Shown here piece after piece: positions 8,726 through 38,433 of a stretch of DNA of 64,000 bases. Position 1 is the first letter of the stretch. The number at the start of each line of letters is the position of its first letter. Location of the stretch: positions 539,722-603,721 of the forward strand of contig JBBTTO010000002.1 of the NCBI GenBank assembly GCA_038064195.1. The letters run 5' to 3'. Below the pieces are notes generated by a model. It was given only the letters and a program-made list of their open reading frames with translations, made no database searches and had not been told where the DNA came from. Source of the stretch: Patescibacteria group bacterium. Its GTDB lineage: Bacteria; Patescibacteriota; Microgenomatia; Levybacterales; UBA12049. The position numbers and the translations under genes were made by a program.

Positions 8726-8783
8726 ATGTAAATAACCTCACCTATGTCGCATTTTCCACTATTGTGCGACGTAATAATAAAAT

Positions 8784-8812
8784 TTGACAAATCAAGAATT
8801 TTAACGTATGCT
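8784..8812 (+). promoter_or_regulatory. Candidate promoter (TTGACA - 17 nt - TATGCT), preceded by the shared motif ATTGTGCGACGT at 8761-8772
   Basis: Hexamers read directly. The same 12-mer occurs at 38380-38391, upstream of another island promoter. Confidence 0.35.
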
Positions 8813-8839
8813 TACCTGAACATAAAGAAGAAAGCTTAG

Positions 8840-9589
8840 ATGAAAGATTACCCATTTAAAACACAAGAGGAAGCAATTAAATATATACAAAAACTATTCA
8901 GACGAATAGGCACTACTCCAGGAGAGAAAGTTTTTTACAAAGAAAGTGGCATGAAATTATACCCACTTCAAAAACTTGGCTTCTCCAATTATGGTCAATT
9001 AGTAAGGGAAGCAGAATTGCCTCCTAATAAGTTTGATAAAACTAAATATACCGAGGATTTTTTAATTAAAGAATTTATAAAAATGATTAGAAAGAATAAA
9101 AAATGGCCTACAAAAGCTGAATTGGATATTAAACACTTTAATGATCCAAATTTTCCTACCTCAGCAACATTCTATAAAAAATTTGGCTTAGTTAAGGGTA
9201 TGGCTGAAAATATCTTAGATTATACCTATGGGAAAAAAGGTTATAAAGACGTGAGAGACATATGCAATGAGATACTCATGAAATATGATAATTCAATGTC
9301 AAATGAAGAAGGAGATTCAAGAAGTGGTTATGTTTATATCCTTAAAAACGGAGGTCGACAAGAATATAAAATCGGGATTAGCGATAGTATACCCAAAAGA
9401 GGAATGCAATTGTCAACATTATCTCCTGAAAATTTAGAATTAATACATTCCATAAAGGCAACTAGTCCTAAAGCTGTTGAAAGATTTCTTCATGACAAAT
9501 TTAATAGCAAAAGAATACAAGGAGAATGGTTTAATCTATCAACGTCCGACATAAAATGGATTAAGAAATGGAACGGAAATGTTCTATAG
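8840..9589 (+). CDS. T5orf172 (GIY-YIG-superfamily) domain protein with two N-terminal homing-endonuclease-associated-type repeats
   Basis: C-terminal GYVYILKNGGRQEYKIGIS...R...L...W motif of the T5orf172/MUG113-like GIY-YIG family. Duplicated ...P..(F/Y)...F..YG repeat units in the N-terminal half. Confidence 0.5.
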   Translation: MKDYPFKTQEEAIKYIQKLFRRIGTTPGEKVFYKESGMKLYPLQKLGFSNYGQLVREAELPPNKFDKTKYTEDFLIKEFIKMIRKNKKWPTKAELDIKHFNDPNFPTSATFYKKFGLVKGMAENILDYTYGKKGYKDVRDICNEILMKYDNSMSNEEGDSRSGYVYILKNGGRQEYKIGISDSIPKRGMQLSTLSPENLELIHSIKATSPKAVERFLHDKFNSKRIQGEWFNLSTSDIKWIKKWNGNVL

Positions 9590-9714
9590 TCCCATACATA
9601 ATTGATCATTGACCTTTCAACTAAAACATCGTAATTTTCCTTAGGTTTTTTTAGTCCATTCGGCAGGCTCAGGATAAATAAGAATTGAAGCTAAAATGAC
9701 TGGATGTCTATAAA

Positions 9715-9742
9715 ATCCCTGCATTCCTCAGGCAGAGAAATT
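9715..9742 (+). repeat. Copy B of the 28-nt ftsZ-tail core (exact repeat of 7939-7966)
   Basis: 28/28 identity with copy A. The upstream context in-frame encodes [14 protein letters not shown]-stop. Confidence 0.9.
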
Positions 9743-10016
9743 AATCTAAAAAATTCCTTACGTAGTTTTTGCAAAGAATGCTATACATAAGCGCGTCTTC
9801 TGCTTTTTTATCAATATCAGAATTAGAAAGAACATTTGGAATGTTATCTAAAATTTTTGCGAAATAAGGTTTGACTTTAGATCTGTTTACCTCCGTAATC
9901 CTTTTCAAAGATTCTTCAGAAAAACGTTCTGCCATCTTTATTGATCTCCTGTGATACCCTATAGCAACACGCATAAGATCCATAGATAGTGATTCTATAG
10001 CTATTTTATTATTCAT
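9741..10016 (-). CDS. Hypothetical small protein (91 aa). Second gene of a two-gene minus-strand pair.
   Basis: ORF only. 4-nt overlap with the upstream 71-aa ORF suggests translational coupling. Its stop abuts repeat copy B. Confidence 0.35.
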   Translation of the reverse strand: MNNKIAIESLSMDLMRVAIGYHRRSIKMAERFSEESLKRITEVNRSKVKPYFAKILDNIPNVLSNSDIDKKAEDALMYSILCKNYVRNFLD

Positions 10017-10228
10017 AATATTTCCTGAAAGAAGAATCGGGTTAATGCATCATATCGTTTTCTAATTTCAGGATCAAGAATCTCATTTCCAGCGTTATTA
10101 TCTGTGGGTCTGATGTTAATAAAGGAATTGAAGTCAATATCTATTACTGTTTTGATGTACGAATCGAACTGTTCTTTTAGATTTTCAATTTCTTTTTTTG
10201 AATAAGGTTCAGCTTTAGTAATAATCAC
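10013..10228 (-). CDS. Hypothetical small protein (71 aa)
   Basis: ORF only, coupled to the 91-aa ORF. Divergent from the 10384 gene. Confidence 0.35.
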   Translation of the reverse strand: MIITKAEPYSKKEIENLKEQFDSYIKTVIDIDFNSFINIRPTDNNAGNEILDPEIRKRYDALTRFFFQEIL

Positions 10229-10337
10229 TCAGATAGTTTAGCATATTATCCTCGTAATTTTAAAAATGATTATGAGTAAAGTACTCTACCACAAATTCAA
10301 TCCTGCGCGACATGGATGAGCTAATAACGTTGAGTTA

Positions 10338-10366
10338 TTGAATTATTACCCCAGCCACTATATAAT
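10338..10366 (+). promoter_or_regulatory. Candidate promoter (TTGAAT - 17 nt - TATAAT)
   Basis: Consensus-like hexamers 18 nt before the ATG at 10384. Confidence 0.35.
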
Positions 10367-10383
10367 TGCCGAAAAGAACATAT

Positions 10384-11157: not shown

Positions 11158-11310
11158 GTTCTGATCTTAATACCTCTTGTCATCCTTTTTCAAAGAGCAC
11201 AAAACTTGTTGACTTTGCTTCTTGTTATTGTTACATTCAAGATGTCATAAGATGACAAAGAAATGCCATAAGAAATTTACGGTATTTCTTAAGGGCATGA
11301 AGCTAAAAAG

Positions 11311-12334: not shown

Positions 12335-12400
12335 TTTTTTTATATACTATCGCGTATTTCTACGGCAGAGGAACTAGCTTCAGATTAATCCCGGCAATTA

Positions 12401-13426
12401 CTATTTTGTAAATAGGAGCTGTAAGAATTCTTTATATCCTCTTTTAAATCTTCTTCGCGTCGCTACTTCAAGCATAAGTTCAATCATTGCTACAAATAAC
12501 AACCAGTAAACAAAAATAGCTATTTTCTGACTGATATATATATTACCAGATATATACGCTGCAAAGGACAAAAATATTAATACACCTGATACTAAAAAAG
12601 TTACCTCACTTCGTAAACGATAGATTAAAATACCCATCATCCAAATTATTCCAAATATACGGAAATCCTGCAGCACAAGCGAATTAAATTCAGGTGAAAA
12701 CGTCATAAAGATAATAAGAAGTGAAAGATAAAAATAATTTACTTTGGCACCGAGATTTTTATTAAACAGAGCGAAAAATACATAAAAAATGAAAGGAGTG
12801 AGATGAAGTAATTGTTGAGCTGAATCTGCTACATTTGAAGAGGGTTTTGTTGTTTTTCTTTCAATAAAATTAACTGTATCACCAATATTTAGTAGGGCAT
12901 ATTTTATGGAGTATTTGTATTTAGTGACAAAAATTTGTTCATGTGGAGAAACATAGATTGCATCATCCTTTTTACCCAGCGTTGATTCGATCTGAAAATC
13001 ATACGTTTTCCCTTTTGAGTTGACAATTACCGGAAAGCCGAAGGTAAAAAGTTGATTATCCTGGAATTGGTCAACTTTATAATTTGCTTGATAATACCAG
13101 TCTCTTTCACCTTTTTCTTTTATCTTAAAAATAAGGATGTCATTACCTGCTCGTTTATAAGTGCCAAACCTTATCGCGAGGATTCCCAAATTGTTTGAGT
13201 GTGCGACGAACTCTCCGGTTATTATTTCCCCTTTCATAAGAGGTGTTTTAATCGGAGCAATTATATCTTTTTGAGTTTTTGGGTAAGCAATTATTGAAAC
13301 TGGCTCGCTTGTATCGAAGTTACGAAAAAAATAAAGAAAAAAACCAAATAGGAGAAGAGCACAAGGAATAATGAGCCATTTTAAGAGCAGATAAAAGAAA
13401 TGATGTGTTTTCATAACAAGTAACAA
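12401..13426 (-). CDS. Hypothetical integral membrane protein
   Basis: Multiple hydrophobic segments. No motif recognised. Confidence 0.45.
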   Translation of the reverse strand: MLLVMKTHHFFYLLLKWLIIPCALLLFGFFLYFFRNFDTSEPVSIIAYPKTQKDIIAPIKTPLMKGEIITGEFVAHSNNLGILAIRFGTYKRAGNDILIFKIKEKGERDWYYQANYKVDQFQDNQLFTFGFPVIVNSKGKTYDFQIESTLGKKDDAIYVSPHEQIFVTKYKYSIKYALLNIGDTVNFIERKTTKPSSNVADSAQQLLHLTPFIFYVFFALFNKNLGAKVNYFYLSLLIIFMTFSPEFNSLVLQDFRIFGIIWMMGILIYRLRSEVTFLVSGVLIFLSFAAYISGNIYISQKIAIFVYWLLFVAMIELMLEVATRRRFKRGYKEFLQLLFTK

Positions 13427-18857: not shown

Positions 18858-20168
18858 ATGGGTAAGCTAACACACAAAGTTGCCCTGTTATCATTAACAA
18901 TTCTTTTCTTCTTTTCCACCTCGGTTGCTCCTGCGCTGGCTGCAATTACTTACCTTTATGATGCCAACGGTAATCTGACATCCGACGGGAGCAAATGTTA
19001 TGAGTACAATCAGGAAAATCAATTGGTCAAAGTTAAGACGTGTGGCAACAGTCAGACTATCGCCGAGTATGTCTATGATTATCAAGGTCAGCGATTAGTC
19101 AAAAAAGAATACAGTAACGGTACGCTGCAAAAGACCACTTTTTCTCCCGGCGATTCATATGAAACCGTAAAGTTAGTAAGCGGTACGACGCAAAACACTT
19201 CATATTATTTTGCCAATGATGAGCTCATCGCTAAGAAAAATCCCGATGGCTCAAAAAATTATTTCCTCACTGATCACTTAGGCTCTGATTCCGTCCAGAC
19301 AAATCAAACCGGGACATCGGTTGAGTCTACTCAATACGATCCGTGGGGAGAAGTATTGGCTGGAGGAACGAAAAATAAATTCCAGTACACAGGTCAGGAA
19401 AAAGACAGTGAGACAGGGCTCAACTACTACAACGCGCGCTACTACGATCCCCACACCCGCCATTTTACCCAGGCAGATGGGTTAGTGCAGGACATTTATG
19501 ATCCACAACTACTTAACAGATACGCTTACGTACGTAATAATCCGATCAAATATTCAGATCCAAGTGGAAACTTTGTTTTCTTGGCTGTACCTCTAACAAT
19601 GTGGGTGGTAGCAGCATTCTTAGGTGGTTCAGCAGTCTATACTGCAACTCCTCAGGGACAAAAAACAGTTCAGAGTGCACTTAGATCGGCTTATCAAGGA
19701 GCCAATAGTTTAGTATCACAGTCTAGGAACGCTGTATCGAATGTATCAAAAGCAATAGCTAATTCTACAAAAACTGGATCTCAATCTACCAACCCGTCCA
19801 ACTCTTCTCCAAAGAATAACTCACCATATGGGAAGAGTCCAAACTTAGGGCCAATTCAAAAAATAGCACCACTCGCTCCAGCAGCAGAACAGGCAATCGA
19901 AAAAATCCATGGTAACGATCTCAGAAATTCTTTGAATACAATTGGTTACACCTTGAGAGATACAGGTTCCGGGGTCATTCAAAAATTCGGTATAACCTCA
20001 AATCAAGCGAGTAGATATTCCCAAACTTATCTCAATTCAAATAAGCTTGAGCTTGTACAAGAGGTTGAGGGCTCCAGGCATGATGTTTATGTCTGGGAGC
20101 ATGAGCAAATAGGAGAGTACTTAATGAAGAATTTAGAATTACCTTCACTTAATAAGTCATTGCATTAG
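18858..20168 (+). CDS. Secreted short RHS protein: signal peptide, a few YD repeats, RHS repeat-associated core, and a variable C-terminal toxin domain
   Basis: Signal peptide. YD repeats (YLYDANGNLTSDG...). Rhs core ...GLNYYNARYYDPHTRHFTQADGL...NRYAYVRNNPIKYSDPSGN (TIGR03696-type). This is followed by a ~200-aa unrelated C-terminal domain with a hydrophobic helix. Confidence 0.7.
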   Translation: MGKLTHKVALLSLTILFFFSTSVAPALAAITYLYDANGNLTSDGSKCYEYNQENQLVKVKTCGNSQTIAEYVYDYQGQRLVKKEYSNGTLQKTTFSPGDSYETVKLVSGTTQNTSYYFANDELIAKKNPDGSKNYFLTDHLGSDSVQTNQTGTSVESTQYDPWGEVLAGGTKNKFQYTGQEKDSETGLNYYNARYYDPHTRHFTQADGLVQDIYDPQLLNRYAYVRNNPIKYSDPSGNFVFLAVPLTMWVVAAFLGGSAVYTATPQGQKTVQSALRSAYQGANSLVSQSRNAVSNVSKAIANSTKTGSQSTNPSNSSPKNNSPYGKSPNLGPIQKIAPLAPAAEQAIEKIHGNDLRNSLNTIGYTLRDTGSGVIQKFGITSNQASRYSQTYLNSNKLELVQEVEGSRHDVYVWEHEQIGEYLMKNLELPSLNKSLH

Positions 20169-20170
20169 TT

Positions 20171-20581
20171 ATGAGATTTTTTATTACATCAGAAAACCAT
20201 ACAACTATAGCAGATAAGGTGAGATCTGTTCGTAATTCGATTGGACAGAAAATTAGTAAAATGGCTGAAATGAAAGATTATGGACAAAGCGTTAGTTATT
20301 GGGGCCATATCTCAATTGTAAATCCTTCTAGTGTATATGATAAGGGTTTCTATCCTGAAGTTAAAAAATATTCTGGTAGTAAAAAAGAGGTCGAGCTTCG
20401 ATTGAAAATAGACTATGATGATGTCGTTAATGGTGACGAGAAAAAGTTATATACACTTTTTACGGATTCAATTCTTAGAGGAGTTCATATCGCAGAATCT
20501 GAATTAAAAATTGATGACTTTGATTTCAAAAGATTTAGAGCAGATTTAAATGAACTGTTTAGTAAGGAGGGATGGCTATGA
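20171..20581 (+). CDS. Putative cognate immunity protein of the RHS C-terminal toxin
   Basis: Small cytoplasmic ORF starting 3 nt after the toxin gene. It overlaps the next gene by 10 nt. Assigned by position only. Confidence 0.3.
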   Translation: MRFFITSENHTTIADKVRSVRNSIGQKISKMAEMKDYGQSVSYWGHISIVNPSSVYDKGFYPEVKKYSGSKKEVELRLKIDYDDVVNGDEKKLYTLFTDSILRGVHIAESELKIDDFDFKRFRADLNELFSKEGWL

Positions 20582-23500
20582 GAATATCTTTTGGGATCAT
20601 TAAAGTATTAGTTATAGTATTATTATTCGTAATTGCTAGTGTAACTACGACTTCAGCTGCGATGCAGGTGATTCCGCAAAATAATCCCCCGCAACAACCG
20701 AGGGATAAATTCCAGACAGATCTTTTTACCGGATCAGCTACCTATAGCTATCCTATTAACGTGCCAAAGGGCACCAATGATCTTACCCCCGAAGTTAGCT
20801 TTTCATACAACAATCAAGGCGCACACGACACAACAATGCAAAATGGTCTGGGGTGGCAGTTGGAGCGTGATTATATCCAAAGAGATGTTAATTACTCACC
20901 CTGGAATATTACAGATGACAAGTATAAACTGCATTTCAAAGGCCAGACCTATGATCTTGTCTATAACCCAACCGACAGTCTCTTCCATACAAAACAGGAG
21001 TCATTTCTTAAAATTCAACAATTCTTAACCGGCGGACAAGGGACAACCGGTATGTACTGGCAGGTGACTACTCCCGATGGAACGCTCTACCGTTTCGGTT
21101 ATACTACAAACTCAGCTCTTATTTGTGGCGGTCAGACATATGATGGATCCTGGAATGTGGATCAGGTAACTGATACGCATAACAATCATATCTATTTTAG
21201 CTATTTGCAGACTAATGGTGTTGCCTATCTCAGTCAGATCAAATACAACAACGATCAGCTTAGGGAAGTCAACTTTACCTACACTTCCAACTCTTACCAA
21301 AAGCCTGTCTCAGTCCAGGGATGTAGTATTAACGAGACATCAAAATTGTCTGCTATTTCAATCAAAGCAAGCGGAAGTGTCGTCAGAGGCTATGATCTTA
21401 CATATACAAATGCTTCAAATGGTCAGCCGTTGCTCTCCTCAATAACTGAAAAAGGTTCTGACAGCTCCTCTCCCCCCCCAACCACATTTACCTATAACCC
21501 TTCAAGCTCAGGGAATGGTTCAGGTATTGATTTCACAGGTGGAACAAATATAGATGCGGAGCTCAATCATTCAGATGTTGGTCTTTGTGATATGAACGGT
21601 GATGGGTACGTCGATCTTATAAAAACAACAGGAGGAGGGAATTTCAATTGGAATGTTAAACCAGGCAGTGGTACTGCTTTTGCAGCCACCTGGGTAACTA
21701 TGGCCTCAATTCCTGTTCAGTTAGGCGCTTCCAATATGAGACTTACTGATGTGACAGGGGACGGGAAATGTGATGTGGTTCAGACCGTCTATCGGGGAGG
21801 ACCAAATCCTAATTATGACTGGTTTGTCTGGACCAACACATCCGACAAACAGGCCGGGACACTTTCTTTTAGTGGTCAGACCAAATGGGAAGACAATATT
21901 AACTTTGATCAGGCAGCCGGCCTCACTGATACGAGCCTCACGCTTATCGATATGAATGGTGATGGGCTTTCTGATATTGTGCATGTCGGACAAAACAATG
22001 ACTGGGCAGTCTATCTTAACTTACCGGGACAAAATACCTGGAACAATGACAATACTAACTGGGCGCATGGGGTCTCATCTTTCAATAATCCGAGTACCAG
22101 ACTTGCTGATGTGAATGGTGATGGATTCCCTGATGTCATTATCTCAAGTAGTAACGGGGGGCCAAATGAAACCTATGAGGTTCTTCTTAATAGTGGTGGC
22201 TCACTCATGCCTTCTAAGAAATGGATTGATAATGCGAGTGTTGATGCCATTGATTTCAGTAATCACAACGTAGTTATTGCCGATGTCAATGGAGATGGAC
22301 TCCCTGATATTGTGCGGGGCAATGGCTTTAATTCAAGTAATACCAGTGCCCATTGGCAGGTATTACTTAATATGGGAGATCATTTTTCTACAACTATTAC
22401 TACCTGGTTTGATGCGACTATGAATGGGAGTAATGACTTTGACTTAGTTAAAGTTGTCGATCTCAATGGTGATGGTCTGACAGATGTTCTCAATCAGGCT
22501 TTTGGTTCATGGCAGGGTTATATTTCCCAGGGTTTTGCTCCTAATGCTCTTTATGAAATTACCACATCACAAGGGGGGTATATCGCCTTCGATTATACTC
22601 CGTCCACACGGTATTCTAATGGCAGTAATTTATCGTTCCCTCTTTGGCTGGTTAATAGGATGACTGTGCGGAATGGGCTTCCGGCACCGCACAGTACATC
22701 TGATGTTACAAACTATTTCTATGGAAATGGTAAATACAATGTCCAGCAGAGAGAGTTCCGAGGCTTTGGCAGCGTCAATGAAATATTAGCTAGTGGGACT
22801 AAGAGAGCATATAATTTTAATCAAGACGACGCACTGAAAGGAAGGCTTGCGTTGGAGGCTACCAGGGACACTAATGATAACCTCTACGCACGAACCGATT
22901 ATAGCTGGAGTAATTCACAAAGCAATAGTATTTATACTGTCTTGCTACAGTCTCAGCAAAAGTTTACCTATGATGGTGCGGGTGCAAATGCAAAGATCAT
23001 CCAGACTGATTATACGTATGATATCTTCGGGAATATTACCAAAACCTCAGAACTCGGTGATACGAGTTTAACAGGAGATGAGCGCTTCACTTACTCAGAG
23101 TATGCCTCAAATCCGACTCTTTGGCTGGTTAGCACTCCGAAACATACGTATAAAAGAGCAGCCGACGACACGACTAAACTCTCAGAGTCATGGTTTTACT
23201 ATGACGGTCATACAGGTCTTGATGACGCACCGACGAGAGGTGATGTCACGAAAGAAGTTAAATGGCTTAATACAGCCTCCGTAAATCCGACTATTCTTTC
23301 TGAGTATGATGCGTTTGGTAATCTTATTAAAGTAACTGATGCCAATAGTCACATTACGGGGTATCACTATGGTACGAGTGATACCACCTCAACATACCCT
23401 GACAATTCAACCAACGCCAAAAATCAAATAACTTCATACCTGTATGATCTCGGGACTGGCAACCTCCTTTCATCGTCTGATCCGAACGGATTTATCACTT

Positions 23501-26500
23501 CTTATCTGTATGATACTTTCGGCAGACTCAGCAAGGAGATCAAACCATATGATACCGCCAGCTTCCCAACGACTAGTTATCAATATTTTACTGATGGAGT
23601 AGCTCCTGAGGGTATCCTGGTTGCCAAACGTCAGACCAGCGGAGCTGCAGGAACACTTGATACCTATACCTGGGCTGATGGACTCGGAAGGGTTCTTCAG
23701 ACACGTGCACCTGCAGAGAATACTTCTCAGCAGATCGTAGTTGATTCATTCTATGGGCCAAGTAGTAAGGTAATTAAGCAAACAGTGCCTTATTTGACGA
23801 CGCTGAGTGCTGCGTATGCAACGCCTGTGAGTGGAGTAAGGGCGACAACAACGGTCTATGATCCGCTTGATCGGCCGACACTTGTAACCAATCCCAACGG
23901 GACGACTCGCACTACAGCGTATGATCACTGGAAAGTCAGTACAACTGATGAGAATAGTCATGTCGTGAATAAGATTTTCAACGCTTTTGACAAAATAATC
24001 AGAATTGAAGAGATTGTGGCCTCACTCCCACAAGTCACCACGTATGCTTACAATGGGTTAGACAATTTGATCGCGATTACCGATAGCGCGGGTAACAATT
24101 TTTCACTCTCCTATGACTCATTGGGTAGACGAGTTACTCAAGTCGATCCGGATTTGGGTACATGGCGCTATGAATATGATAGTGTCGGAAATCTGACGAA
24201 AAGAACAGATAATCGTAATATAGCGATTGTGAAAAACTATGATGAGTTAGATCGCTTGACTAAAGTAGATTATCCAACTGATACCGATATCACGTATACC
24301 TATGATGGTAATACGAGGATTGGGAGCCTGACATCTGTCATCGATACAGCCGGGACGATCAACTATACTTATGACAACCGTCTCCGCAAATTATCAGAGC
24401 AACGCACGATCGATGGTACGAGCTGGACGACACAATACGCCTACGATGCGCTTGATCGGATAATGAGCCAAACAAATCCGGATGGCGAGGTGGTAGGGTA
24501 TACCTTTAACTCCCAAGGCGAGATAGATAAAGTGACCGGAATTCTCAACAATATCGACTACAGTGCTTTGGGAAAGATTACTAAAAAAGATTTTGCCAAT
24601 GCTTTGTCTACAGTATATTCGTACAACTCCGATGACTTCCGGCTGCATAACATCAAAACAGGTTCGCTGCAGGATCTGACCTATACATACGATAATGTGG
24701 GGAATATAACAAGTATTGCTAATGCAGTAACGAGTAAGACTCAAAATTTCGGTTACGATGATCTGAACAGGTTGCTTACAGCTTCGCTCACCGGAGGCTA
24801 TAATTATGCTTACAGCTACAACGCAATCGGTAATTTACTGACATTCAATAATGGTTCAGCCACTATTAATTACACATATGGCCAGAATGTCGGGGTACAT
24901 GCCCTGACCACCTCTTCCGAAACTGCAGTAGCTACACCGACGCCGACTCCAACGTCCACCCAACCTACGCCCACTCCGACACCATTACCTGGGGGCGGGA
25001 CTGAACTCCTGGGTACGATCTGGACGCTCTCAGGCAATAATAGTGACGCACAGAATGATAAAGTAATTACTTCCAATTCTCTTAACGGGATGACATCGGC
25101 TCAGGTTACGTTCAATTTACATGGCAAGACATTCGGCACAGGAGACGATGAAGCATCAATTATCTTTATTCAAAATGGAGTATGGCTGGCAGCAAATGTC
25201 ACCAAATTCGGTGCTCAAAATGGTTTGGATGGTTTACAAACGGTAACGATCCCCTTGACAAGCTTCCATAAGGTTAATGATGCAAGTGTAACCCTCGATC
25301 CGAGTCAGCCAGTCTCAAATCTGCATGCCAGGTTCTGGAATAGTTTTTCATTCACAGTCGATATTACGAGCGTTAAAGTCACAGCAGTGACGAGTACTCT
25401 TCAGTCTCAGGGTAAACCAATCGTCGCATCGACACAAAAGACGGGATATGAGGCCACAAAAGCCAATGATGGCAATATTGGTTCGTACTGGGAAGGAGTG
25501 GATCATGCCTTTCCAGCTTCGCTTACGGTGGATTTGGGAGCAGTCTATTCAGTAGACAAAGTGGTTATGAAGCTTAACTGGGGCGCGAGAACGGAAAATG
25601 TTACGATTTTAGGGAGCACGGATAACACTACTTTCACCACTATCGTTGGAGCTACTAATTATTCTATAGGCAATGTTCCTGTTACCTTTACGTCGCGAAA
25701 TATACGTTATGTACGGATTATGGTTAATGCCAATAGTGTAACGCCTGCTGGACAAATGGCAGAGTTTGAAGTATGGGGACAAGGTTCAGGTGGACCGACT
25801 CCAACCCCTACAGTTCAGCCAACGCCTACACCAACTGCTACACCCACTCCAACACCAACGCCTGCAAGTGGTTATACTGGTCAGTACTATTCAAATAAAA
25901 CACTCTCTGGTTCACCTACGTTGACGAGAAATGATACTGCCATTAATTTTGACTGGGGATCTGGAAGACCCGATCCATTGCTGCCTGTTGATAACTTTTC
26001 CGTACGTTGGAACAGAACCATTAATTTCACAGCCGGTTCATATAAATTCTCGATGACCGGGGATGATGGAGTAAGACTTAAGATAGACGGAGTCACAGTA
26101 ATCGATAAATGGATTGACCAGGGACCAACTACCTATACAACCACCCAACAGTTAACAGCAGGTAACCATACGATAGTTATGGAGTATTACGAAAGTGGTG
26201 GTGGAGCTGTGGCTAAACTCTCCTATCTGGAAGTTCAGGCGCCGACCCCAACGCCTACGCCCTCTGGTAGTGGCACAGAGATACTCGGAACTATCTGGAC
26301 GCTTATCGGCAATAATGGTGCTGCTGAGAGAGACAAAACACTTGCGGCCAATACCTTAAATGGTAAAACATCCGCACAAATTACCTTTGATCTGCATGGT
26401 GCAACTTTCGGCGGGGGAGATGATGAGGCCTCAATTGTTTTCGTCCAAAGCGGCGATTGGCGGGCAGCCAACGTCACTAAGTTCGGGGCGCAAAACGGCT

Positions 26501-26664
26501 TGAATGGGAGTCAGACAGTGACGATCCCATTGACGAGCTTTCACAAAGTAGGCAATGCGGGTATTACTCTTAATCCTGCGCTGTCAGTTTCCAACCTCCA
26601 TGCCAGGTTCTGGAGGAGCTCTTCATTTACTGTTGATATAACCAGCGTCAAGCTCCTCCCCTAA
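20572..26664 (+). CDS. Giant secreted SpvB/TcB-like YD(RHS)-repeat protein. It has FG-GAP-type beta-propeller repeats and C-terminal PT-linkers, a discoidin-like domain, a PA14 domain and two copies of a ~130-aa lectin-like domain. It has no RHS core or toxin tip.
   Basis: Signal peptide. SpvB N-terminal motif DLFTGSATYSYPINVPKG...LGWQL. Repeated D(V/M/L)NGDG(L/Y)(P/T)D units. Many YD repeats (YTYDIFGNITKT, YDSLGRRVTQ..., and others). PA14-like segment (GYTGQYYSN...NFSVRW...). Discoidin-like segment (ANDGNIGSYWEG). Two ~65%-identical C-terminal modules. Confidence 0.8.
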   Translation: MAMRISFGIIKVLVIVLLFVIASVTTTSAAMQVIPQNNPPQQPRDKFQTDLFTGSATYSYPINVPKGTNDLTPEVSFSYNNQGAHDTTMQNGLGWQLERDYIQRDVNYSPWNITDDKYKLHFKGQTYDLVYNPTDSLFHTKQESFLKIQQFLTGGQGTTGMYWQVTTPDGTLYRFGYTTNSALICGGQTYDGSWNVDQVTDTHNNHIYFSYLQTNGVAYLSQIKYNNDQLREVNFTYTSNSYQKPVSVQGCSINETSKLSAISIKASGSVVRGYDLTYTNASNGQPLLSSITEKGSDSSSPPPTTFTYNPSSSGNGSGIDFTGGTNIDAELNHSDVGLCDMNGDGYVDLIKTTGGGNFNWNVKPGSGTAFAATWVTMASIPVQLGASNMRLTDVTGDGKCDVVQTVYRGGPNPNYDWFVWTNTSDKQAGTLSFSGQTKWEDNINFDQAAGLTDTSLTLIDMNGDGLSDIVHVGQNNDWAVYLNLPGQNTWNNDNTNWAHGVSSFNNPSTRLADVNGDGFPDVIISSSNGGPNETYEVLLNSGGSLMPSKKWIDNASVDAIDFSNHNVVIADVNGDGLPDIVRGNGFNSSNTSAHWQVLLNMGDHFSTTITTWFDATMNGSNDFDLVKVVDLNGDGLTDVLNQAFGSWQGYISQGFAPNALYEITTSQGGYIAFDYTPSTRYSNGSNLSFPLWLVNRMTVRNGLPAPHSTSDVTNYFYGNGKYNVQQREFRGFGSVNEILASGTKRAYNFNQDDALKGRLALEATRDTNDNLYARTDYSWSNSQSNSIYTVLLQSQQKFTYDGAGANAKIIQTDYTYDIFGNITKTSELGDTSLTGDERFTYSEYASNPTLWLVSTPKHTYKRAADDTTKLSESWFYYDGHTGLDDAPTRGDVTKEVKWLNTASVNPTILSEYDAFGNLIKVTDANSHITGYHYGTSDTTSTYPDNSTNAKNQITSYLYDLGTGNLLSSSDPNGFITSYLYDTFGRLSKEIKPYDTASFPTTSYQYFTDGVAPEGILVAKRQTSGAAGTLDTYTWADGLGRVLQTRAPAENTSQQIVVDSFYGPSSKVIKQTVPYLTTLSAAYATPVSGVRATTTVYDPLDRPTLVTNPNGTTRTTAYDHWKVSTTDENSHVVNKIFNAFDKIIRIEEIVASLPQVTTYAYNGLDNLIAITDSAGNNFSLSYDSLGRRVTQVDPDLGTWRYEYDSVGNLTKRTDNRNIAIVKNYDELDRLTKVDYPTDTDITYTYDGNTRIGSLTSVIDTAGTINYTYDNRLRKLSEQRTIDGTSWTTQYAYDALDRIMSQTNPDGEVVGYTFNSQGEIDKVTGILNNIDYSALGKITKKDFANALSTVYSYNSDDFRLHNIKTGSLQDLTYTYDNVGNITSIANAVTSKTQNFGYDDLNRLLTASLTGGYNYAYSYNAIGNLLTFNNGSATINYTYGQNVGVHALTTSSETAVATPTPTPTSTQPTPTPTPLPGGGTELLGTIWTLSGNNSDAQNDKVITSNSLNGMTSAQVTFNLHGKTFGTGDDEASIIFIQNGVWLAANVTKFGAQNGLDGLQTVTIPLTSFHKVNDASVTLDPSQPVSNLHARFWNSFSFTVDITSVKVTAVTSTLQSQGKPIVASTQKTGYEATKANDGNIGSYWEGVDHAFPASLTVDLGAVYSVDKVVMKLNWGARTENVTILGSTDNTTFTTIVGATNYSIGNVPVTFTSRNIRYVRIMVNANSVTPAGQMAEFEVWGQGSGGPTPTPTVQPTPTPTATPTPTPTPASGYTGQYYSNKTLSGSPTLTRNDTAINFDWGSGRPDPLLPVDNFSVRWNRTINFTAGSYKFSMTGDDGVRLKIDGVTVIDKWIDQGPTTYTTTQQLTAGNHTIVMEYYESGGGAVAKLSYLEVQAPTPTPTPSGSGTEILGTIWTLIGNNGAAERDKTLAANTLNGKTSAQITFDLHGATFGGGDDEASIVFVQSGDWRAANVTKFGAQNGLNGSQTVTIPLTSFHKVGNAGITLNPALSVSNLHARFWRSSSFTVDITSVKLLP
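24999..25392 (+). repeat. Internal coding repeat unit 1 (~130-aa module GTELLGTIWTLSGNN...FTVDITSVKV)
   Basis: Paralogous to 26266-26661 at both DNA (~75%) and protein level. Confidence 0.7.
26266..26661 (+). repeat. Internal coding repeat unit 2 (GTEILGTIWTLIGNN...FTVDITSVKL)
   Basis: Paralogous to 24999-25392. Confidence 0.7.
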
Positions 26665-31529: not shown

Positions 31530-34436
31530 TTGAACAATCTGCTTATTTCAGCTAGAATTGAGGCTATGGTAACGCAGTTCAAATCCGTCAGTCCCAAAGT
31601 CAATTTCCCTGAACTTGAGCAGGACATACTCACATTCTGGAAAGATAAAAAGATTTTTGAAAAGTCGATCGAGTCTCGCCCCGTAGACAAAAAATGGACC
31701 TTTTTAGACGGTCCGCCATTTGTCACCGGTATGCCTCATTATGGTTCATTACTTTCTAGTATCCCCAAGGACGTTTTCGGCCGTTATTTCACCATGAAAG
31801 GTTATCGTGTCAGGCGTGTCTGGGGTTGGGACGGGCATGGTCTGCCGATTGAGAATAAAGTTGAGAATAAATTAGAGATCAAACGTAAAAAAGATATTGA
31901 AGATGTCGTCGGAGTCAAGCGATTTATTGAGGAATGTAAAAAATACGTTACTGAGATCTCAGGGGAGTGGGAATGGTATGTCGATCATATCGGACGTTGG
32001 GTAGATTTTCAAAACGCCTACAAGACGTGGGATACGCCATACATGGAGTCGGTGATGTGGGTTTTCAGGCAGCTGTATGATAAAGGCCATATCTATAAAG
32101 GACTCAAGGTTACTCTTTACTGTCCCCACTGTGCCACCCCTATCTCCAACTTTGAAGTTGCGATGGATGCGGATAACTATAAAGAAGTCCCGGATGCAGC
32201 CACAACATACAAATACCAACTACGATCTACCAACTACGATCTACCAACTTATATTCTGGCCTGGTCGACCACTCCCTGGAACAAAATTGTGACACCGGCA
32301 CTAGCTGTCAATCCTGAGCTCACCTACGTCAAAGTAAAGCAAAACAATGAGTTTTATATTCTGGCCAAGCCGACACTCAAGATACTCGGAGAGACACCTT
32401 ACGAAATTGTTGAGGAAATGAAAGGTGAGGATTTGATCGGTACTAAATTTGTCCCGCACTATGATTACTATAAAATAAAAGAAGGGGAGAAAGCTTTTGT
32501 GGTCATCGGCGGTGACTTCGTGACAGCCGAAGAGGGGACAGGTGTCGTGACTATAGCAGCATATGGCGAGGAAGACTTGGTCGTTATGCTCAAAGAAAAC
32601 ATCCACATCGAAATGCATGTCGATGAGGAGGGTATTATAAAATCTGACGTGCCTAAATTTGGCGGGATGTATTATTTAAAGGCCAATAAAGCCGTTAATG
32701 AAGATTTGGCCTCTCGTGGACTGATTTACAAAGACGAAGAAGTACCCCACAATGTTCCCCTCTGTTGGCGTTGTCATACCCGGCTTTACTATGCGCCGAT
32801 TGACGCCTGGTATGTCAATATTCAGAACATGAAAGAACTTCTCAAAAAGACCAATGAAGACGTCAACTGGTTTCCTAAGCATTTTAAAACTGGCCGCTTT
32901 CTTAAAAGTCTTGAGAATGCGCCTGACTGGAATATCTCACGCAACCGCTACTGGGGATCGCCTGTTCCGGTCTGGGAATGTGAGTGCGGAGAGCGTTTTG
33001 TTCCCGGATCGATCAAAGAGCTTGAAGAAAAATCCGGGAAAGAAATAAAGGATTTACACAAACCCGAAATTGATGAAGTCACAGTTCCCTGTAGCAAATG
33101 CGGTAAGGATATGCATCGTGTATCTGAGGTTTTGGATAGTTGGATCGAAGCAGGGAGCGCGTCATTTGCCGAGAGACATTTCCCCTTTAATTCGACTGAA
33201 AAGCTGGAAGACTTTTTCCCGCCTGACTATATTGCTGAGTATACAGGACAGATCAGAGCCTGGTTTTATGTCCTCCATGTTATAGGTGGCGCGCTGTATG
33301 ATTCTCCCGCTTTCAAAAATGTTTCGGTAAGCGGTGTTATTTTAGGTACTGACGGGCGTAAGATGAGTAAGAATTTCAAAAACTACCCAGATCCGAAAGA
33401 AATGCTCGAGAAATTCGGGGGAGATGCTCTCAGGCTTTATCTCATGGGAAGTCCTGTGATGAACGGGGAAGATATCCTTATTTCTGAGGAGCAATATCGC
33501 AATCAAGTGCGTGGCATGATGCTTATTTTATGGAATGTCTATAATTTCTTTATTCAAAACGCGTTGATTGACGACTGGACACCGGGTGAGGAGGTAGCAT
33601 CAGAAAATGTTTTAGATCAGTGGTTGGTGTCTCTTCTTCATGGATTGGTCCGTGATGTAACAAAAGCGCTTGACTCCTATGACACGGTTGTCGCTATCGA
33701 TCAGATTAAAGTTTTTGTCGATAATTTTTCGACCTGGTATCTCAGACGAAGTCGTGATCGGGTCGGACCTAACGCAGATGATGACTCAGATAAAAATGCC
33801 TTTTATGCTACCTCCTACGAGGTGCTTGTTACACTGACTAAGCTTTTAGCCCCTATAGCGCCTTTTATTTCAGAGTCAATATATAAGAATTTGACTGATG
33901 AAGAGTCAGTGCATCTCTCAGATTGGCCTGCATTTGATGACTCAAAAATCAATAGAGAGCTGGAAGAGCAGATGGAGTTGGCACGTAGGCTAGTTGAGGT
34001 TGGACATTCACTTAGGAAAGAATTAGGCATTAAATTGCGTCAGCCTTTAGAGAGGGCATGGCATGATGAACCTAAAAAGAAAATCAGCAATATAGATGTT
34101 TTACATCTTGTTCTTGGGGAAGTGAATGTTAAATATTGGATCAATAACGAAGCTTATGATGAGTTTGAAAAAAAAGATGGGGTTAAGTTTAAAAATATTG
34201 ACGGGTTTACATTTTATCTTGATACGACTTTGACACCCGAACTTGAGGCTGAAGGACAAGCTCGAGAGATTATCAGAAAAATTCAGGATGAGCGAAAAAG
34301 GCTCGAAACCAGCCCAACTGAAGAGATAATCGTTACTCTTGAAGAGTGGCCTGAACAATTTGAGTCAGAGATAAAAAAGAAAACGCTAAGTAAAACTCTT
34401 TCCAAAGGACCTTTTAGTGTTACCCGTTTAACATGA
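31530..34436 (+). CDS. ileS: Isoleucyl-tRNA synthetase, eukaryote/archaeal-like type 2 (start may be the Met at 31566)
   Basis: PPFVTGMPHYGSLL variant HIGH region, KMSKNFKNYPDP (KMSKS), editing-domain and anticodon-binding regions. Type-2-like signature and length. Confidence 0.9.
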   Translation: MNNLLISARIEAMVTQFKSVSPKVNFPELEQDILTFWKDKKIFEKSIESRPVDKKWTFLDGPPFVTGMPHYGSLLSSIPKDVFGRYFTMKGYRVRRVWGWDGHGLPIENKVENKLEIKRKKDIEDVVGVKRFIEECKKYVTEISGEWEWYVDHIGRWVDFQNAYKTWDTPYMESVMWVFRQLYDKGHIYKGLKVTLYCPHCATPISNFEVAMDADNYKEVPDAATTYKYQLRSTNYDLPTYILAWSTTPWNKIVTPALAVNPELTYVKVKQNNEFYILAKPTLKILGETPYEIVEEMKGEDLIGTKFVPHYDYYKIKEGEKAFVVIGGDFVTAEEGTGVVTIAAYGEEDLVVMLKENIHIEMHVDEEGIIKSDVPKFGGMYYLKANKAVNEDLASRGLIYKDEEVPHNVPLCWRCHTRLYYAPIDAWYVNIQNMKELLKKTNEDVNWFPKHFKTGRFLKSLENAPDWNISRNRYWGSPVPVWECECGERFVPGSIKELEEKSGKEIKDLHKPEIDEVTVPCSKCGKDMHRVSEVLDSWIEAGSASFAERHFPFNSTEKLEDFFPPDYIAEYTGQIRAWFYVLHVIGGALYDSPAFKNVSVSGVILGTDGRKMSKNFKNYPDPKEMLEKFGGDALRLYLMGSPVMNGEDILISEEQYRNQVRGMMLILWNVYNFFIQNALIDDWTPGEEVASENVLDQWLVSLLHGLVRDVTKALDSYDTVVAIDQIKVFVDNFSTWYLRRSRDRVGPNADDDSDKNAFYATSYEVLVTLTKLLAPIAPFISESIYKNLTDEESVHLSDWPAFDDSKINRELEEQMELARRLVEVGHSLRKELGIKLRQPLERAWHDEPKKKISNIDVLHLVLGEVNVKYWINNEAYDEFEKKDGVKFKNIDGFTFYLDTTLTPELEAEGQAREIIRKIQDERKRLETSPTEEIIVTLEEWPEQFESEIKKKTLSKTLSKGPFSVTRLT

Positions 34437-35935: not shown

Positions 35936-35938
35936 CTA

Positions 35939-35967: not shown

Positions 35968-36017
35968 AATCTTGTTTTCACAACGTCAAACGTTGCCGAG
36001 GTAAAGGAGAATAAAAA

Positions 36018-36269
36018 ATGGCACATACAAAATCACAAGGGGCAGTCAAAGGTAATAGAGATTCCATAGCCAAAAGACTCGGTGTCAAGGTATACGGCAA
36101 TGGTGTTGTCAAACCCGGTAGTATTCTCGTTCGTCAACGCGGGACACAGTTCCGCGCGGGTGAAGGAGTCGAAATGGGTAAGGACTTCACACTCTTTGCC
36201 ATTAAAAATGGTAACGTTAATTTTAAGACCCGTAAGGGAAAGAAAATCATTGAAGTAACCAATGGATAG
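36018..36269 (+). CDS. rpmA: 50S ribosomal protein L27
   Basis: [16 protein letters not shown]...[11 protein letters not shown]27 signature. Confidence 0.9.
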
Positions 36270-37143
36270 TACAGTCGGTCAACTAACAGAACTCGAACCA
36301 GCCCAACTCCAGTCCAACCCTCTTCAGCCCCGTGGTGTCATTCTCCAGGACTCACTCACTGATCTCGTCGAGTCAATTCGTGAACAGGGAATCCTCGAGC
36401 CGATCGTCGTTGCCAAAACACCGGCAGGTTTTCAAATCATCGCAGGCGAGAGACGTTGGCGGGCAGCCAAGATTTTGGGTCTTCCCAAAGTACCGGTTGT
36501 GATCAGAGAGACGACTCCACAGGGGATGCTGGAGATGTCAATTGTGGAGAATGTGCAGCGGGAAGATCTTAACCCCATCGAAAGAGCTCTCTCATATAGA
36601 AGATTGATTGATGAATTCGGACTCGGTACCAATGAGGTCGCTAAGAGAATCGGTAAAAGTGCACCAACCGTCTCCAATACCATTCGTTTGCTTTCACTCC
36701 CCGATGCTATTAAAGATGCACTCGTTGCGGGTGTTATCACCGAGGGGCATGTACGTCCTCTCATATCACTTGGTGATCCTAAATTAATGCTTGAGCTTTT
36801 TAAGAGAATTCTACGGGACAATCTGACGGTTAGACAGACTGAGGACATATCACGCAAAGTAAAAGGTGAAGTCCAGCAAAAAGAGCCGATCACGAAAAAA
36901 GATCGACTTTGGGTACCTGAACAAGATACCATGGCCCAGCAACTTCAGGAAAAGTATCGGGTTGACGATGTAAAAATATTTCAGTCCAGCAAATTGGCCC
37001 GCATGACGATTGTTATTAAAGGGGATGTCGATGTCACGACCAAAAAACTCAAACAGCTTCATGAAATACTCAGCGGGGCGGATGTTAATGAAGAAAATCT
37101 TCAAGAAGAGCCGGCAGCTCCTGAAACCCTCACAGCTCAATAA
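36262..37143 (+). CDS. parB: ParB/Spo0J chromosome-partitioning protein
   Basis: [26 protein letters not shown] and HTH region. Confidence 0.85.
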
Positions 37144-37148
37144 CTAAG

Positions 37149-37718
37149 CTATTTATAAGGATTTGAGATGGCGTGTGCTTCACTTATCGGCCAATAGACA
37201 AAGAAAGATTTACCGATCACCTCAGACTTTTTCAAAAATCCCCACTCCCGTGAATCAGAACTGTTAGCTCTGTTATCGCCCATAACAAAGATCTCGCCTG
37301 TAGGCACTTTTTTGGGTGCATTTTCAGGTAAAAATGTCCCACCAAACGTTTTGACATCAGAGCTGAGATAACTCTGTTCATTCAGTCTTTCACCATTGAC
37401 ATAGACGCTGCCTTCTTTGATCTCTACAGTGTCACCATTCATACCGATAACTCTTTTTATGAAATCCTTACTGCTATCAACCGGAGCCTTAAAGACGATC
37501 ACGTCCCCCTTATTAAGATGTCCCATTTTAAGTCCGATAATATTAGTGAAAATATATTCTTTATCTTTGTAGGTCGGGAACATCGAATCACCTGAGACCT
37601 GAAAAGGTCTAGCGATGATAAAATAAATCACCAAAAAGACGGCCAGTGCCATGCCGAAAGTCTGCAGAGTGTCTGAAAAAAATCCCAGGGCTTTTTTGTG
37701 AACAGGTTGTTGTTCCAT
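37149..37718 (-). CDS. lepB: Signal peptidase I
   Basis: GDSMFPTY (catalytic Ser box) and GDNRANSSDSREWG (box E). Convergent with parB, stops 5 nt apart. Confidence 0.85.
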   Translation of the reverse strand: MEQQPVHKKALGFFSDTLQTFGMALAVFLVIYFIIARPFQVSGDSMFPTYKDKEYIFTNIIGLKMGHLNKGDVIVFKAPVDSSKDFIKRVIGMNGDTVEIKEGSVYVNGERLNEQSYLSSDVKTFGGTFLPENAPKKVPTGEIFVMGDNRANSSDSREWGFLKKSEVIGKSFFVYWPISEAHAISNPYK

Positions 37719-37752
37719 AATGATTGGTCTATTATTCAGGACTACGCACGAT

Positions 37753-37781
37753 TTGTCAACCGCAATTCAATTTGCTAAGAT
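37753..37781 (+). promoter_or_regulatory. Candidate promoter (TTGTCA - 17 nt - TAAGAT) for the tRNA transcript
   Basis: Hexamers read directly. Confidence 0.3.
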
Positions 37782-37850
37782 TCCTGTACGGTTGCATAGC
37801 TCAGCCCCGATTTAATCGGGGTCAGCAGGTTAGACCTGTCCGACATGTCT

Positions 37851-37924
37851 GGATCCTTAGCTCAGTTGGTTAGAGCGTTGCATTCACATTGCAAAGGTCG
37901 GAAGTTCGAGTCTTCTAGGATCCA
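37851..37924 (+). tRNA. tRNA-Val (anticodon CAC), CCA not encoded
   Basis: Folded by hand. 7-bp acceptor GGATCCT/AGGATCC. D-arm TAGCTCAGTTGGTTAGAGC. Anticodon stem TTGCA/TGCAA with loop TTCACAT. T-arm GGAAGTTCGAGTCTTCT. Discriminator A. Confidence 0.85.
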
Positions 37925-37944
37925 CATTCCGCGTTGGTTCCCTG

Positions 37945-37979
37945 CCCGCCATAGCTATCGCTAGGCGATTGCAGGCGGG
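37945..37979 (+). other. Branched GC-rich stem-loop immediately 3' of tRNA-Val (CCCGCC...GGCGGG with inner hairpin ATCGC-TAG-GCGAT). Possible processing or terminator structure.
   Basis: Inverted repeats read from the sequence. No adjacent U-run, so a terminator call is weak. Confidence 0.25.
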
Positions 37980-38117
37980 GAGTCCAGCTGCGACCACAGA
38001 TTATTTTCTCAGAAAATAGGTATTCCAATAGTAACATTCGGGTTAATGAAGGCTACTTATGCGCTTTCTTCTGGACTTTCTTGAATTTCCCGACGTTCAG
38101 GCATACGAGCTGATTAT

Positions 38118-38138
38118 ACATTCCTCAGGCATAAATGA
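38118..38138 (+). repeat. Copy E: degenerate ftsZ-tail core (ACATTCCTCAGGCATAAATGA), 200 nt after tRNA-Val
   Basis: 13/13 match to CATTCCTCAGGCA of the core. Flanks diverged. Confidence 0.5.
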
Positions 38139-38404
38139 AAATAGAGGGCTATTAATCCATAACTGGTTTGTGGATAGGTTAATAGACTTAAATAAATACC
38201 ATAAATATCTTGAATTCAAGTCCTTTTCATCACAATGAGATATGGTTCATAAGGTTGTGGTAGAGATGAGATCTTAGCCTTACTCTTTTCGAGGATTAGC
38301 CACAAATTGTGATAAAGTAGCCTCAAAAATTTCCGATCCACAACCCACAACTTGTGGTGTTTTAATACAGACAACAATCATTGTGCGACGTTAAAGCTTA
38401 CTTT

Positions 38405-38433
38405 TTGATAAACTTAAAGTTTTGATGTATAAT
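38405..38433 (+). promoter_or_regulatory. Candidate promoter (TTGATA - 17 nt - TATAAT). The ATG at 38440 lies 7 nt after the -10 (leaderless). Shared 12-mer ATTGTGCGACGT at 38380-38391.
   Basis: Hexamers read directly. The 12-mer is identical to 8761-8772. Confidence 0.4.

Follow-up and report, generated by a model that had tools for sequence, protein, structure and literature searches.

The 12-nucleotide sequence ATTGTGCGACGT, which occurs twice in a 64-kb stretch of the genome of a Patescibacteria group bacterium (64,000 nt of contig JBBTTO010000002.1, referred to here in its entirety as the window), is well supported as the terminal and best-conserved block of a DNA module that is specific to the Levybacteria. 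One copy (site A) lies upstream of a gene for a T5orf172 protein, and the other (site B) lies upstream of a three-gene group that starts with a DUF6941 gene. It is highly probable that the module constitutes a conserved end of small gene cassettes. What the module does is a more tentative matter, and a role as a recombination arm or as a boundary is put forward as a possibility that falls somewhat short of probable. The explanation towards which we lean overall is that the module forms the left end, as an attachment-site (att) arm or an insulator, of integrase-less cassettes that have accreted at the 3' end of ftsZ.

Exact search places both copies of the 12-mer on the + strand, at positions 8761-8772 and 38380-38391, as reported in an initial annotation of the window, and also finds the promoter-like boxes described downstream of them, TTGACA-17-TATGCT at 8784-8812 and TTGATA-17-TATAAT at 38405-38433. 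The distances from the 12-mer to the -35 box had been given as 12 and 14 nt; each is off by one, the actual values being 11 nt at site A and 13 nt at site B. The TAA said to follow the 12-mer in both places is present at site B (38392-38394) and not at site A, where AATAAT comes next. The accompanying argument that a random 12-mer should not recur in 64 kb does not hold in general: identical 12-mers form 382 same-strand pairs in the window, versus about 189 in shuffled sequence. The motif with up to two mismatches is not enriched in the window (5 observed versus 2.8 expected), nor is it enriched at other promoters within the window. Intergenic DNA makes up only 3454 nt of the window, and when the comparison is confined to this DNA, shared 12-mers that are equally improbable are expected 0.06 times, the probability of at least one being 0.045. 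In the same test, the flanks of the two gene groups have further rare words in common. The recurrence of the 12-mer is more than chance, because of this intergenic-only test and because independent profiles derived from other genomes recover both sites (see below).

Read on the strand of the 12-mer, the module has the consensus TAGCYTCAAAWCC-RYGTCGYA-(~9 nt)-ATTGTRCGACRY, to which a longer form adds TTATAGT..TTAGCCTCAAG..ACAATTT upstream. It is 40-120 nt in length and begins right after the stop codon of ftsZ or another gene. The 12-mer corresponds to the final block (ATTG + TRCGAC + RY), whose information content by position is A0.9 T1.4 T1.5 G1.6 T1.7 R1.1 C2 G2 A2 C2 R1.1 Y1.0. Conservation falls to background within a few bases beyond this block, and BLAST alignments among elements of unrelated contigs mostly stop between -2 and +4 nt from it. 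The 12-mer had been proposed as a regulatory module, which does not stand in the form of a free-standing 12-bp, promoter-proximal factor site, the 12-mer being the last block of a unit of 40-120 nt. Exact TAGCYTCAA has only five occurrences in the window. The module takes a short form at site A and a long, disrupted form at site B:

8733-8772, + strand: left-end module of site A, short form, consisting of TAACCTCAC (8733-8741), the left arm ATGTCGCA (8744-8751), a loop (8752-8760), and then ATTG, the right arm TGCGAC and GT, the last 12 nt being the 12-mer (8761-8772).

38274-38391, + strand: left-end module of site B, long disrupted form, consisting of TTAGCCTTA (38274-38282), TAGCCACAA (38297-38305), ACAAATT, TAGCCTCAAAA (38318-38328), a left arm that has become degenerate, a loop enlarged by about 32 nt of inserted sequence with a small hairpin (38338-38357), and the 12-mer (38380-38391).

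The window is part of a 1.08-Mb contig that was assembled from groundwater at Hainich. The closest proteins to those of the window come from Candidatus Levybacteria, a lineage of the Candidate Phyla Radiation (CPR). Eleven loci from the same species are identical around both sites and are therefore uninformative about constraint. Among the comparison loci from other genomes and metagenome contigs, which are designated by L-numbers, the sequence ATTGTACGACAT is found in L012 upstream of a T5orf172 homolog with 60% identity, and ATTGTGCAATAT is found in L016 upstream of a DUF6941 homolog with 79% identity, with alignable homology to the window starting exactly there. The motif was not found at more distant cargo homologs with 46-48% identity (L019, L021/22 and L023). 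In a set of 80 ftsZ loci from GTDB genomes, the only near-matches among relatives are in L027, where each of the two forms the 3' arm in a dyad, ATGTCGCA-N12-14-TRCGAC, with TAGCYTCAA before it. A full palindrome of the same kind is located in L025 between two convergent toxin-antitoxin gene pairs. All seven sequences from the window, L012, L016, L025 and L027 can be aligned with one another.

Two profiles that owe nothing to the window recover the sites within it. A covariance model built from L025 and L027 only has its best match in the 64 kb at 8729-8790, which is site A (20.8 bits, E of about 1e-3). When applied to 1.28 Mb of CPR ftsZ loci, the same model finds no members beyond its training loci, and the element is confined in that DNA to the variable stretch behind ftsZ of those two Levybacteria. 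The second-best match of the model in the window (60553-60607, 18 bits, E of about 0.01) is a hairpin, GACTCCAAAGCC..GGATTGGGAGTC, inside a gene of the PMT_2 glycosyltransferase type; its outer arms resemble CTTCAAATCC, and it is probably a generic hairpin. Metagenome contigs were scanned with the opposite arm only, TRCGACRYGGWTTTGARGCTA, a query that does not contain the 12-mer. The scan returned 30 loci, several of them from other Hainich wells, of which about 28 score as full elements, and the 12-mer block lies across the loop from the query arm in 22 distinct elements. The module was found in about 25 contigs besides the window. In viral contigs the arm pattern was without a match. For an nhmmer profile made with the 22 metagenome elements, none of them from the window, the top match in the window is site A (8744-8772, E 0.011), followed by the right part (38372-38391) and then the left part (38289-38328) of site B, these two parts being collinear within about 100 nt. 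The fourth match is TAGCTTCAAAA at 39995-40011. Site B thus reads as a long-form element with a decayed left arm and about 32 nt gained in the loop.

Conservation of the module appears to act on its sequence rather than on a fold. Site A does fold, as a hairpin or dyad of 10 bp with the 12-mer for its 3' arm (dG -13.2 kcal/mol, z -2.8). Site B, the partner arm of which is degenerate, gives no stable hairpin on folding (z -0.4). In 19 diverse copies the stem has 8 pairs with 91% of cells pairable, but this value is equalled by 128 of 500 column shuffles, and covariation of the stem is not above background, its score being matched by 124 of 500 shuffles of these copies. Four of the stem pairs are invariant, and the variable ones change independently. 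Since the stem is without covariation, the constraint is at the level of sequence, and the pattern argues for sequence-specific recognition of a dyad, GTCGYA-N13-TRCGAC, and not for selection on the fold. A change from C-G to T-A between site A and L012 had looked like covariation of the hairpin and was lost in the larger alignment. Searches with Rfam 15 gave only tRNA-Val at gathering score in the window, and nothing overlapping the elements in nine element-bearing loci at E <= 1.

The module appears as one component of a recurrent unit, in which the tail of ftsZ is followed by 0-870 nt, the left-end module, 1-5 kb of cargo with its own promoter, a right-end module of about 100 nt and a copy of the ftsZ tail. 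Site A is located 0.8 kb behind ftsZ (6790-7968) and site B is located 0.45 kb behind the gene for tRNA-Val(CAC) (37851-37925). Cassette A (8733-9744) and cassette B (38274-40059) both match the layout of the unit, and it is because both sites belong to cassettes of one layout that they share the 12-mer and a similar distance to the -35 box. The suggestion in the initial annotation that the repeat ties the two cassettes into one element family is borne out by this common arrangement of module, promoter and cargo, right-end module and ftsZ-tail copy. The remaining features of the two cassettes and their surroundings are as follows:

7939-7968, + strand: true 3' end of ftsZ, the proposed attachment core, with the dyad ATTCCT-N7-AGAAAT.

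8784-8812, + strand: promoter-like TTGACA-17-TATGCT, 28 nt upstream of the ATG at 8840 and just outside the conserved module.

8840-9589, + strand: cargo of cassette A, a T5orf172/MUG113 (GIY-YIG-like) protein of 249 aa according to Pfam, and a PADLOC candidate (PDC-S57).

9685-9744, + strand: right end of cassette A, consisting of TTGAAGCTA (9685-9693), about 21 nt, and the tail copy ATCCCTGCATTCCTCAGGCAGAGAAATTAA (9715-9744), which encodes IPAFLRQRN* and is identical to the ftsZ end over the 28-nt repeat.

12357-12383, + strand: ftsZ-tail remnant encoding FLRQRN* with synonymous variants, for which the TAG of TAGCTTCAG serves as stop codon; it marks where the variable region behind ftsZ ends on the right.

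38118-38138, + strand: remnant of an ftsZ tail in degenerate form (TFLRHK*), located left of cassette B and 192 nt past tRNA-Val(CAC).

38405-38442, + strand: promoter-like TTGATA-17-TATAAT (boxes at 38405-38433), followed after 6 nt by the ATG of the DUF6941 gene, a leaderless-type arrangement.

38440-39910, + strand: cargo of cassette B, consisting of DUF6941 (38440-38856), orf166 (38859-39359) and orf183 (39359-39910).

39957-40110, + strand: right end of cassette B, consisting of AGACTTAAAAAG..AGGTG..TTAGCTTCAA (the last at 40001-40009), about 20 nt, a tail copy (40030-40059) encoding IPAFLRQRN* with 4 synonymous differences, a second TAGCTTCAA (40067-40075) and then a terminator (40085-40102).

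41987-42007, + strand: further tail remnant (IPAFLRR..), preceded by AAAAGTAGGGGA as at 40008, which closes a second unit with orf155 and PIN_12, both on the - strand.

Copies of the ftsZ tail provide the link between the cassettes and ftsZ. A 28-nt exact direct repeat (7939-7966 and 9715-9742) encodes the C-terminal peptide of FtsZ, IPAFLRQRN*, and the window has six tail copies or remnants, all of them reported as intergenic and on the + strand, some with synonymous differences only. The six tails delimit groups of genes behind ftsZ and behind tRNA-Val. The tail at 40030, together with the terminator after it, aligns collinearly with the native end of ftsZ in L027 and the terminator there. 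In other genomes, an FtsZ tail is present in 15 of the 30 loci that had been fetched solely via the module arm. The true ftsZ stop codon is followed by the module within 2-17 nt in L112, L115 and L119, and a tail copy is found 1-5 kb downstream in seven loci (L111, L119, L128, L132, L106, L118 and L027) as well as in cassettes A and B. These tail copies are preceded by the right-end module, AGACTTAAAAAG..AGGTG..TTAGCTTCAA or its complement, and then about 20 nt. Extra tails behind ftsZ also occur in L024, L025 and L027 and, in another CPR group, in L091. The region behind ftsZ is hypervariable among Levybacteria, and synteny of the window with its nearest relative, L024, resumes only at 12402, shortly past the tail remnant at 12357. 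The gene for isoleucyl-tRNA synthetase (IleRS), which is at 31566 in the window, is close to ftsZ in other relatives.

Several further arrangements of tail sequences were observed. Tandem extra FtsZ tails (PAFLRRSKLK*) lie directly behind ftsZ in L091:5333-5680, which is from the Paceibacterota, and in L073:11210-11420, and targeting of the ftsZ end may be wider than the Levybacteria. In the two closest relatives, a second tail copy on the minus strand is inverted with respect to ftsZ (L024:12840-12871 and L025:12556-12588). The inverted tails bracket 1.4-1.7 kb, which in L025 consists of two convergent toxin-antitoxin pairs, and inversion between the tail copies of L024 or L025 would leave ftsZ intact. 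A second arrangement, in which a tail is followed by GCGRAGTTCGGCGAGGC.. and a second partial tail (PAFLRQ[RK]N*), is seen in L025:11144-11187, L027:17147-17203, L104 and L118. The array around cassette B (38118-42007) places ftsZ-end sequences and a terminator of the native ftsZ type (40085-40102) by tRNA-Val, 30 kb from ftsZ. The tRNA-Val homolog in L016 is 4.8 kb from the DUF6941 gene and in the opposite orientation.

The module travels with the downstream cargo gene, as it precedes T5orf172 in both the window and L012 and precedes Schlafen/AlbA_2 cargo in L027 and L118. A same-strand open reading frame (ORF) starts 14-71 nt past the module in 12 rows of a 31-row context table, and a same-strand ORF ends 0-50 nt ahead of the module in about 10 of those rows. 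The 12-mer is at a similar distance from the -35 box at both sites of the window because the promoters of the cargo lie immediately beyond the conserved block. Only inside the DUF6941 cargo family does the block keep a constant distance to the promoter; across families this distance ranges from about 8 to 95 nt. Measured to the -10 box, T5orf172 has 34 nt in the window and about 95 nt in L012, and other families of cargo have about 8-27 nt. In the DUF6941 genes of the window, L016 (79% identity) and L115 (36%, E 2e-33), TATAAT, 6 nt and the ATG are found 36-37 nt past the 12-mer block. The stretch from TATAAT to ATG is at 38428-38442 in the window and at L016:5989-6003, and the exact 6 nt that separate TATAAT from the start codon in all three genomes point to a leaderless transcript that has been conserved. 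Cassette B and L016 have in common only the DUF6941 gene and the start of the second gene. The promoter region of T5orf172, TTGAYAAATCAAGA(T)ATTTTAA (8784-8806 in the window), also occurs upstream of a 48%-identical homolog in L021 (about 3395-3425), which sits behind a Fic gene in another phylum-level context. Since TTGAYAAATCAAGA..ATTTTAA is conserved upstream of that homolog, the T5orf172 promoter moves together with its gene.

A candidate for the enzyme that could have inserted the cassettes is encoded in related genomes. In L027 and L036, the gene that comes directly after ftsZ encodes a tyrosine recombinase (Phage_integrase, 3e-32, in L027). This recombinase is Xer-like, with a SAM-like N-terminal domain, and scores below the cut-offs for XerC, XerD and integron integrases; with the integron-integrase model the proteins of L027 and L036 reach 71-85 bits, compared with a cut-off of 265, and the match is limited to the C-terminal catalytic part. 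The ftsZ tail contains a dyad, ATTCCT-N7-AGGAAT in L027 (11060-11089) and ATTCCT-N7-AGAAAT in the window (7945-7965), which could serve as the core site of a tyrosine recombinase. Codon choice for Phe-Leu..Arg-Asn makes this dyad possible. In the explanation that we favour, the cassettes would be integrase-less remnants, or cis-mobilisable units, of elements inserted into the ftsZ tail by an Xer-like tyrosine recombinase, with the tail dyad ATTCCT-N7-AGGAAT as the recombination core. Each insertion would rebuild the end of ftsZ and leave a tail copy, and repeated insertion would result in tandem accretion. The module would be an element-borne arm beside the core, conserved as the dyad GTCGYA-N13-TRCGAC together with TAGCYTCAA repeats, and would function as a cis site recognised by a protein, either as an accessory to recombination or as a boundary. 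It might also separate read-through from ftsZ from the cargo promoter directly behind it. The possibility raised in the initial annotation that the 12-mer is part of a recombination site comes close to this proposal.

A number of observations weigh against this explanation. No recombinase was found among the ORFs of the window that were scanned with Pfam or in its gene tables, and none was found in the short metagenome loci. Neither an empty site nor a polymorphism was seen, all 20 contigs with identical FtsZ showing the same layout, nor did any of the loci compared contain a circular or attP junction, in which the right-end module, the tail and the left-end module would adjoin. In cassette A, the ftsZ tail and the module are separated by orf218 (8069-8725), a gene with a weak match to a nucleotidyltransferase fold (Aminoglyc_resit, E 9e-4), and single genes are similarly placed in L105, L108, L111 and L120; a simple attL picture does not explain the intervening gene. 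Site B is without its partner arm, and because that arm has been lost, the dyad is dispensable for the persistence of cassette B. In L012 and L016, the loci with weak homologs, sequences resembling the module occur with no ftsZ tails nearby. Finally, a simple core site is usually enough for recombinases of the Xer-like type, so that nothing requires the module to have an arm-type role.

Alternatively, a transcription factor could bind the dyad GTCGYA-N13-TRCGAC, in which the 12-mer would supply one half-site plus ATTG, and co-regulate the cargo promoters. This alternative survives best and is nevertheless improbable. It would account for the position of the block at about -45 to -65 from the predicted starts at both promoters of the window, and conservation of sequence without covariation is what would be expected of a protein site. 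The constant 36-37 nt to the -10 box also holds across DUF6941 genes that are only 36-79% identical. The conserved unit, however, is 40-120 nt in length with several more blocks and starts at the stop codon of the upstream gene, and its distance to promoter-like boxes varies widely among cargo families. Moreover, the second half-site is missing at site B, no regulator gene was found associated with the cassettes, and the window has only two copies in 64 kb, with no enrichment of near-matches, or of the motif at its other promoters. An activator or repressor role, as suggested in the initial annotation, has nothing that specifically supports it.

Another improbable alternative, which ranks after the operator, is that the module is an RNA 3'-end element. 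The hairpin would end or stabilise the transcript of ftsZ or of the preceding gene and insulate the cargo, and the similarity among copies would reflect common descent of the cassettes. The module is indeed 0-50 nt past a same-strand stop codon in about 10 loci, several of the stop codons being the TAG of TAGCYTCAA, and the 10-bp stem of site A folds well. Other tail copies are followed at this same place by a canonical terminator, TAGCTTCAA..AAGCACC..GGTGCTT-TTTT, and on the opposite strand the hairpin is followed by GGTTTTGA. Past the hairpin on the sense strand, though, there is no T-run, and a terminator scan calls none at 8740-8790. The 19 diverse copies offer no compensatory changes, with four stem pairs invariant, and site B and L016 keep the blocks even though the hairpin is lost.

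It is very unlikely that the module is an integron-like attC site, a palindrome that would fold in single-stranded form and be the substrate of an integron-type integrase, with the end of ftsZ acting as attI. The small co-oriented cassettes, several of which have toxin-antitoxin or defence-type genes, would fit such a system, as would the arrangement of outer arm, inner arm and loop in the full palindromes of L025 and L027 and the short distance to the next start codon. The recombinases of L027 and L036 are nevertheless far below the integron-integrase cut-off and none was found in the window; by inspection there are no RYYYAAC/GTTRRRY core sites, the outer blocks being TAGCYTCAA and TTGARGCTA; the right outer arm is missing from most copies; sequence is conserved and not structure; and some cassette junctions are without a copy. 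Chance recurrence of the 12-mer, or a dispersed selfish repeat unrelated to the cassettes (of the repetitive extragenic palindrome or miniature inverted-repeat transposable element type), is likewise very unlikely despite the abundance of 12-mer pairs in the 64 kb, the lack of enrichment of the motif with up to two mismatches and the presence of several copies per locus in some contigs, as both sites are recovered by independent profiles, the cassette flanks share more rare words and ftsZ-tail copies, the element is restricted in 1.28 Mb of CPR ftsZ loci to the DNA behind ftsZ in two Levybacteria, the boundaries show neither terminal inverted repeats nor target duplications, and both copies in the window are near ftsZ tails. 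A dif-like site was considered and set aside, the resemblance having been judged by eye.

Other features of the window were noted outside the cassettes. An Imm44 immunity-protein gene (20171-20581) lies directly before a 2030-aa ORF (20572-26664). Since the 436-aa ORF next to them (18858-20168) matches TEN_YD-shell, a family of YD-repeat shells, the genes resemble a polymorphic-toxin locus, placed in the variable DNA that separates ftsZ from IleRS. L135 and L136 (ERZ1300416 and ERZ2470813), which are two assemblies of one strain, differ from the window only in 49 scattered single bases over about 7 kb. These differences break the orf218 and T5orf172 calls, and they may be assembly errors rather than signs of pseudogenes.

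The layout of the cassettes matches the known logic of tandem accretion, as described for cis-mobilisable elements (CIMEs; PMC5704250) and for ssrA-specific islands (PMC3146451). In Dehalococcoides, ssrA-specific islands are arranged in tandem at the 3' end of a conserved single-copy gene (PMC3146451). As in that system, insertion is at the 3' end of one conserved gene, gene-end repeats delimit tandem islands, a conserved integration-side module is set apart from variable cargo, and the locus is a major source of strain-level variation. The cassettes differ from ssrA-specific islands in that the target is the coding sequence for the FtsZ C-terminal peptide and not an RNA gene, in the very small size of the units (1-3 kb, 1-3 genes), in the lack of integration genes in the units of the window, and in the left-end module, which has no described counterpart there. 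CIMEs and their site-specific accretion are known from the ICESt1/ICESt3 family of streptococci (reviewed in PMC5704250). The resemblance to CIMEs lies in units that retain attL and attR after loss of the integrase. The present cassettes differ in having no linked conjugation or integration genes, in having a CPR host, in targeting ftsZ rather than fda or a tRNA gene, and in being only putatively mobile.

Integron cassettes are small and mostly co-oriented, and the attC site at their junctions is a conserved imperfect palindrome that is similar within a lineage in chromosomal integrons. The cassettes at ftsZ share with them small size, a mostly common orientation, a junction palindrome that is similar within the lineage, and toxin-antitoxin and unknown cargo. 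Unlike integrons, no IntI-type integrase and no R''/R' core motifs were found, the cargo has its own promoters, the junctions carry copies of the host gene end, and conservation is in sequence rather than structure. There may also be a resemblance to the arms of phage lambda attP. In attP, conserved DNA with repeated short blocks extends for about 100 nt on each side of a short core, and after integration one arm lies beside the target gene and the other at the far end, as the two modules would here. The difference is that the candidate recombinase is Xer-like with a SAM-like N-terminal domain, a type that normally needs no arm sites. In the literature on integrons in Patescibacteria and on islands at ftsZ, no description was found of ftsZ as an integration target or of the module.

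Bacteria of the CPR have tiny genomes, and to our knowledge little is understood of how they acquire and exchange genes. What is new here is a recognisable and previously unnoted cassette system in this group. The analysis indicates one fixed hot spot, the coding sequence for the FtsZ C-terminal peptide, at which small cargo units gather that include genes for GIY-YIG-like nuclease, DUF6941, PIN, Fic/Doc and Schlafen-like proteins and that have recognisable, conserved ends. It also provides a testable recombination substrate, as well as signatures with which metagenomes can be searched, namely TAGCYTCAAAWCC-RYGTCGYA-N9-ATTGTRCGACRY and tail copies encoding IPAFLRQRN*. A note of caution follows for the reading of promoters, as a motif common to the upstream regions of two promoters may reflect the end of a mobile element and not common regulation. 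A bolder proposal, which we consider rather unlikely as a whole, is that Levybacteria, and perhaps other Microgenomates, possess a dedicated platform for cassette exchange at the end of the essential gene ftsZ. Such a platform would consist of a trans-acting Xer-like recombinase and the very small, integrase-less and promoter-bearing cassettes that it would shuffle, with defence, toxin-antitoxin and nuclease genes. Every cassette would have a bipartite attachment region, some 250 bp long and composed of right-end module, ftsZ-tail core and left-end module, within which the 12-mer dyad would be the recognition site of a dedicated accessory or boundary protein. If this were true, such a platform would amount to an integron-like system that a CPR lineage has assembled from other components.

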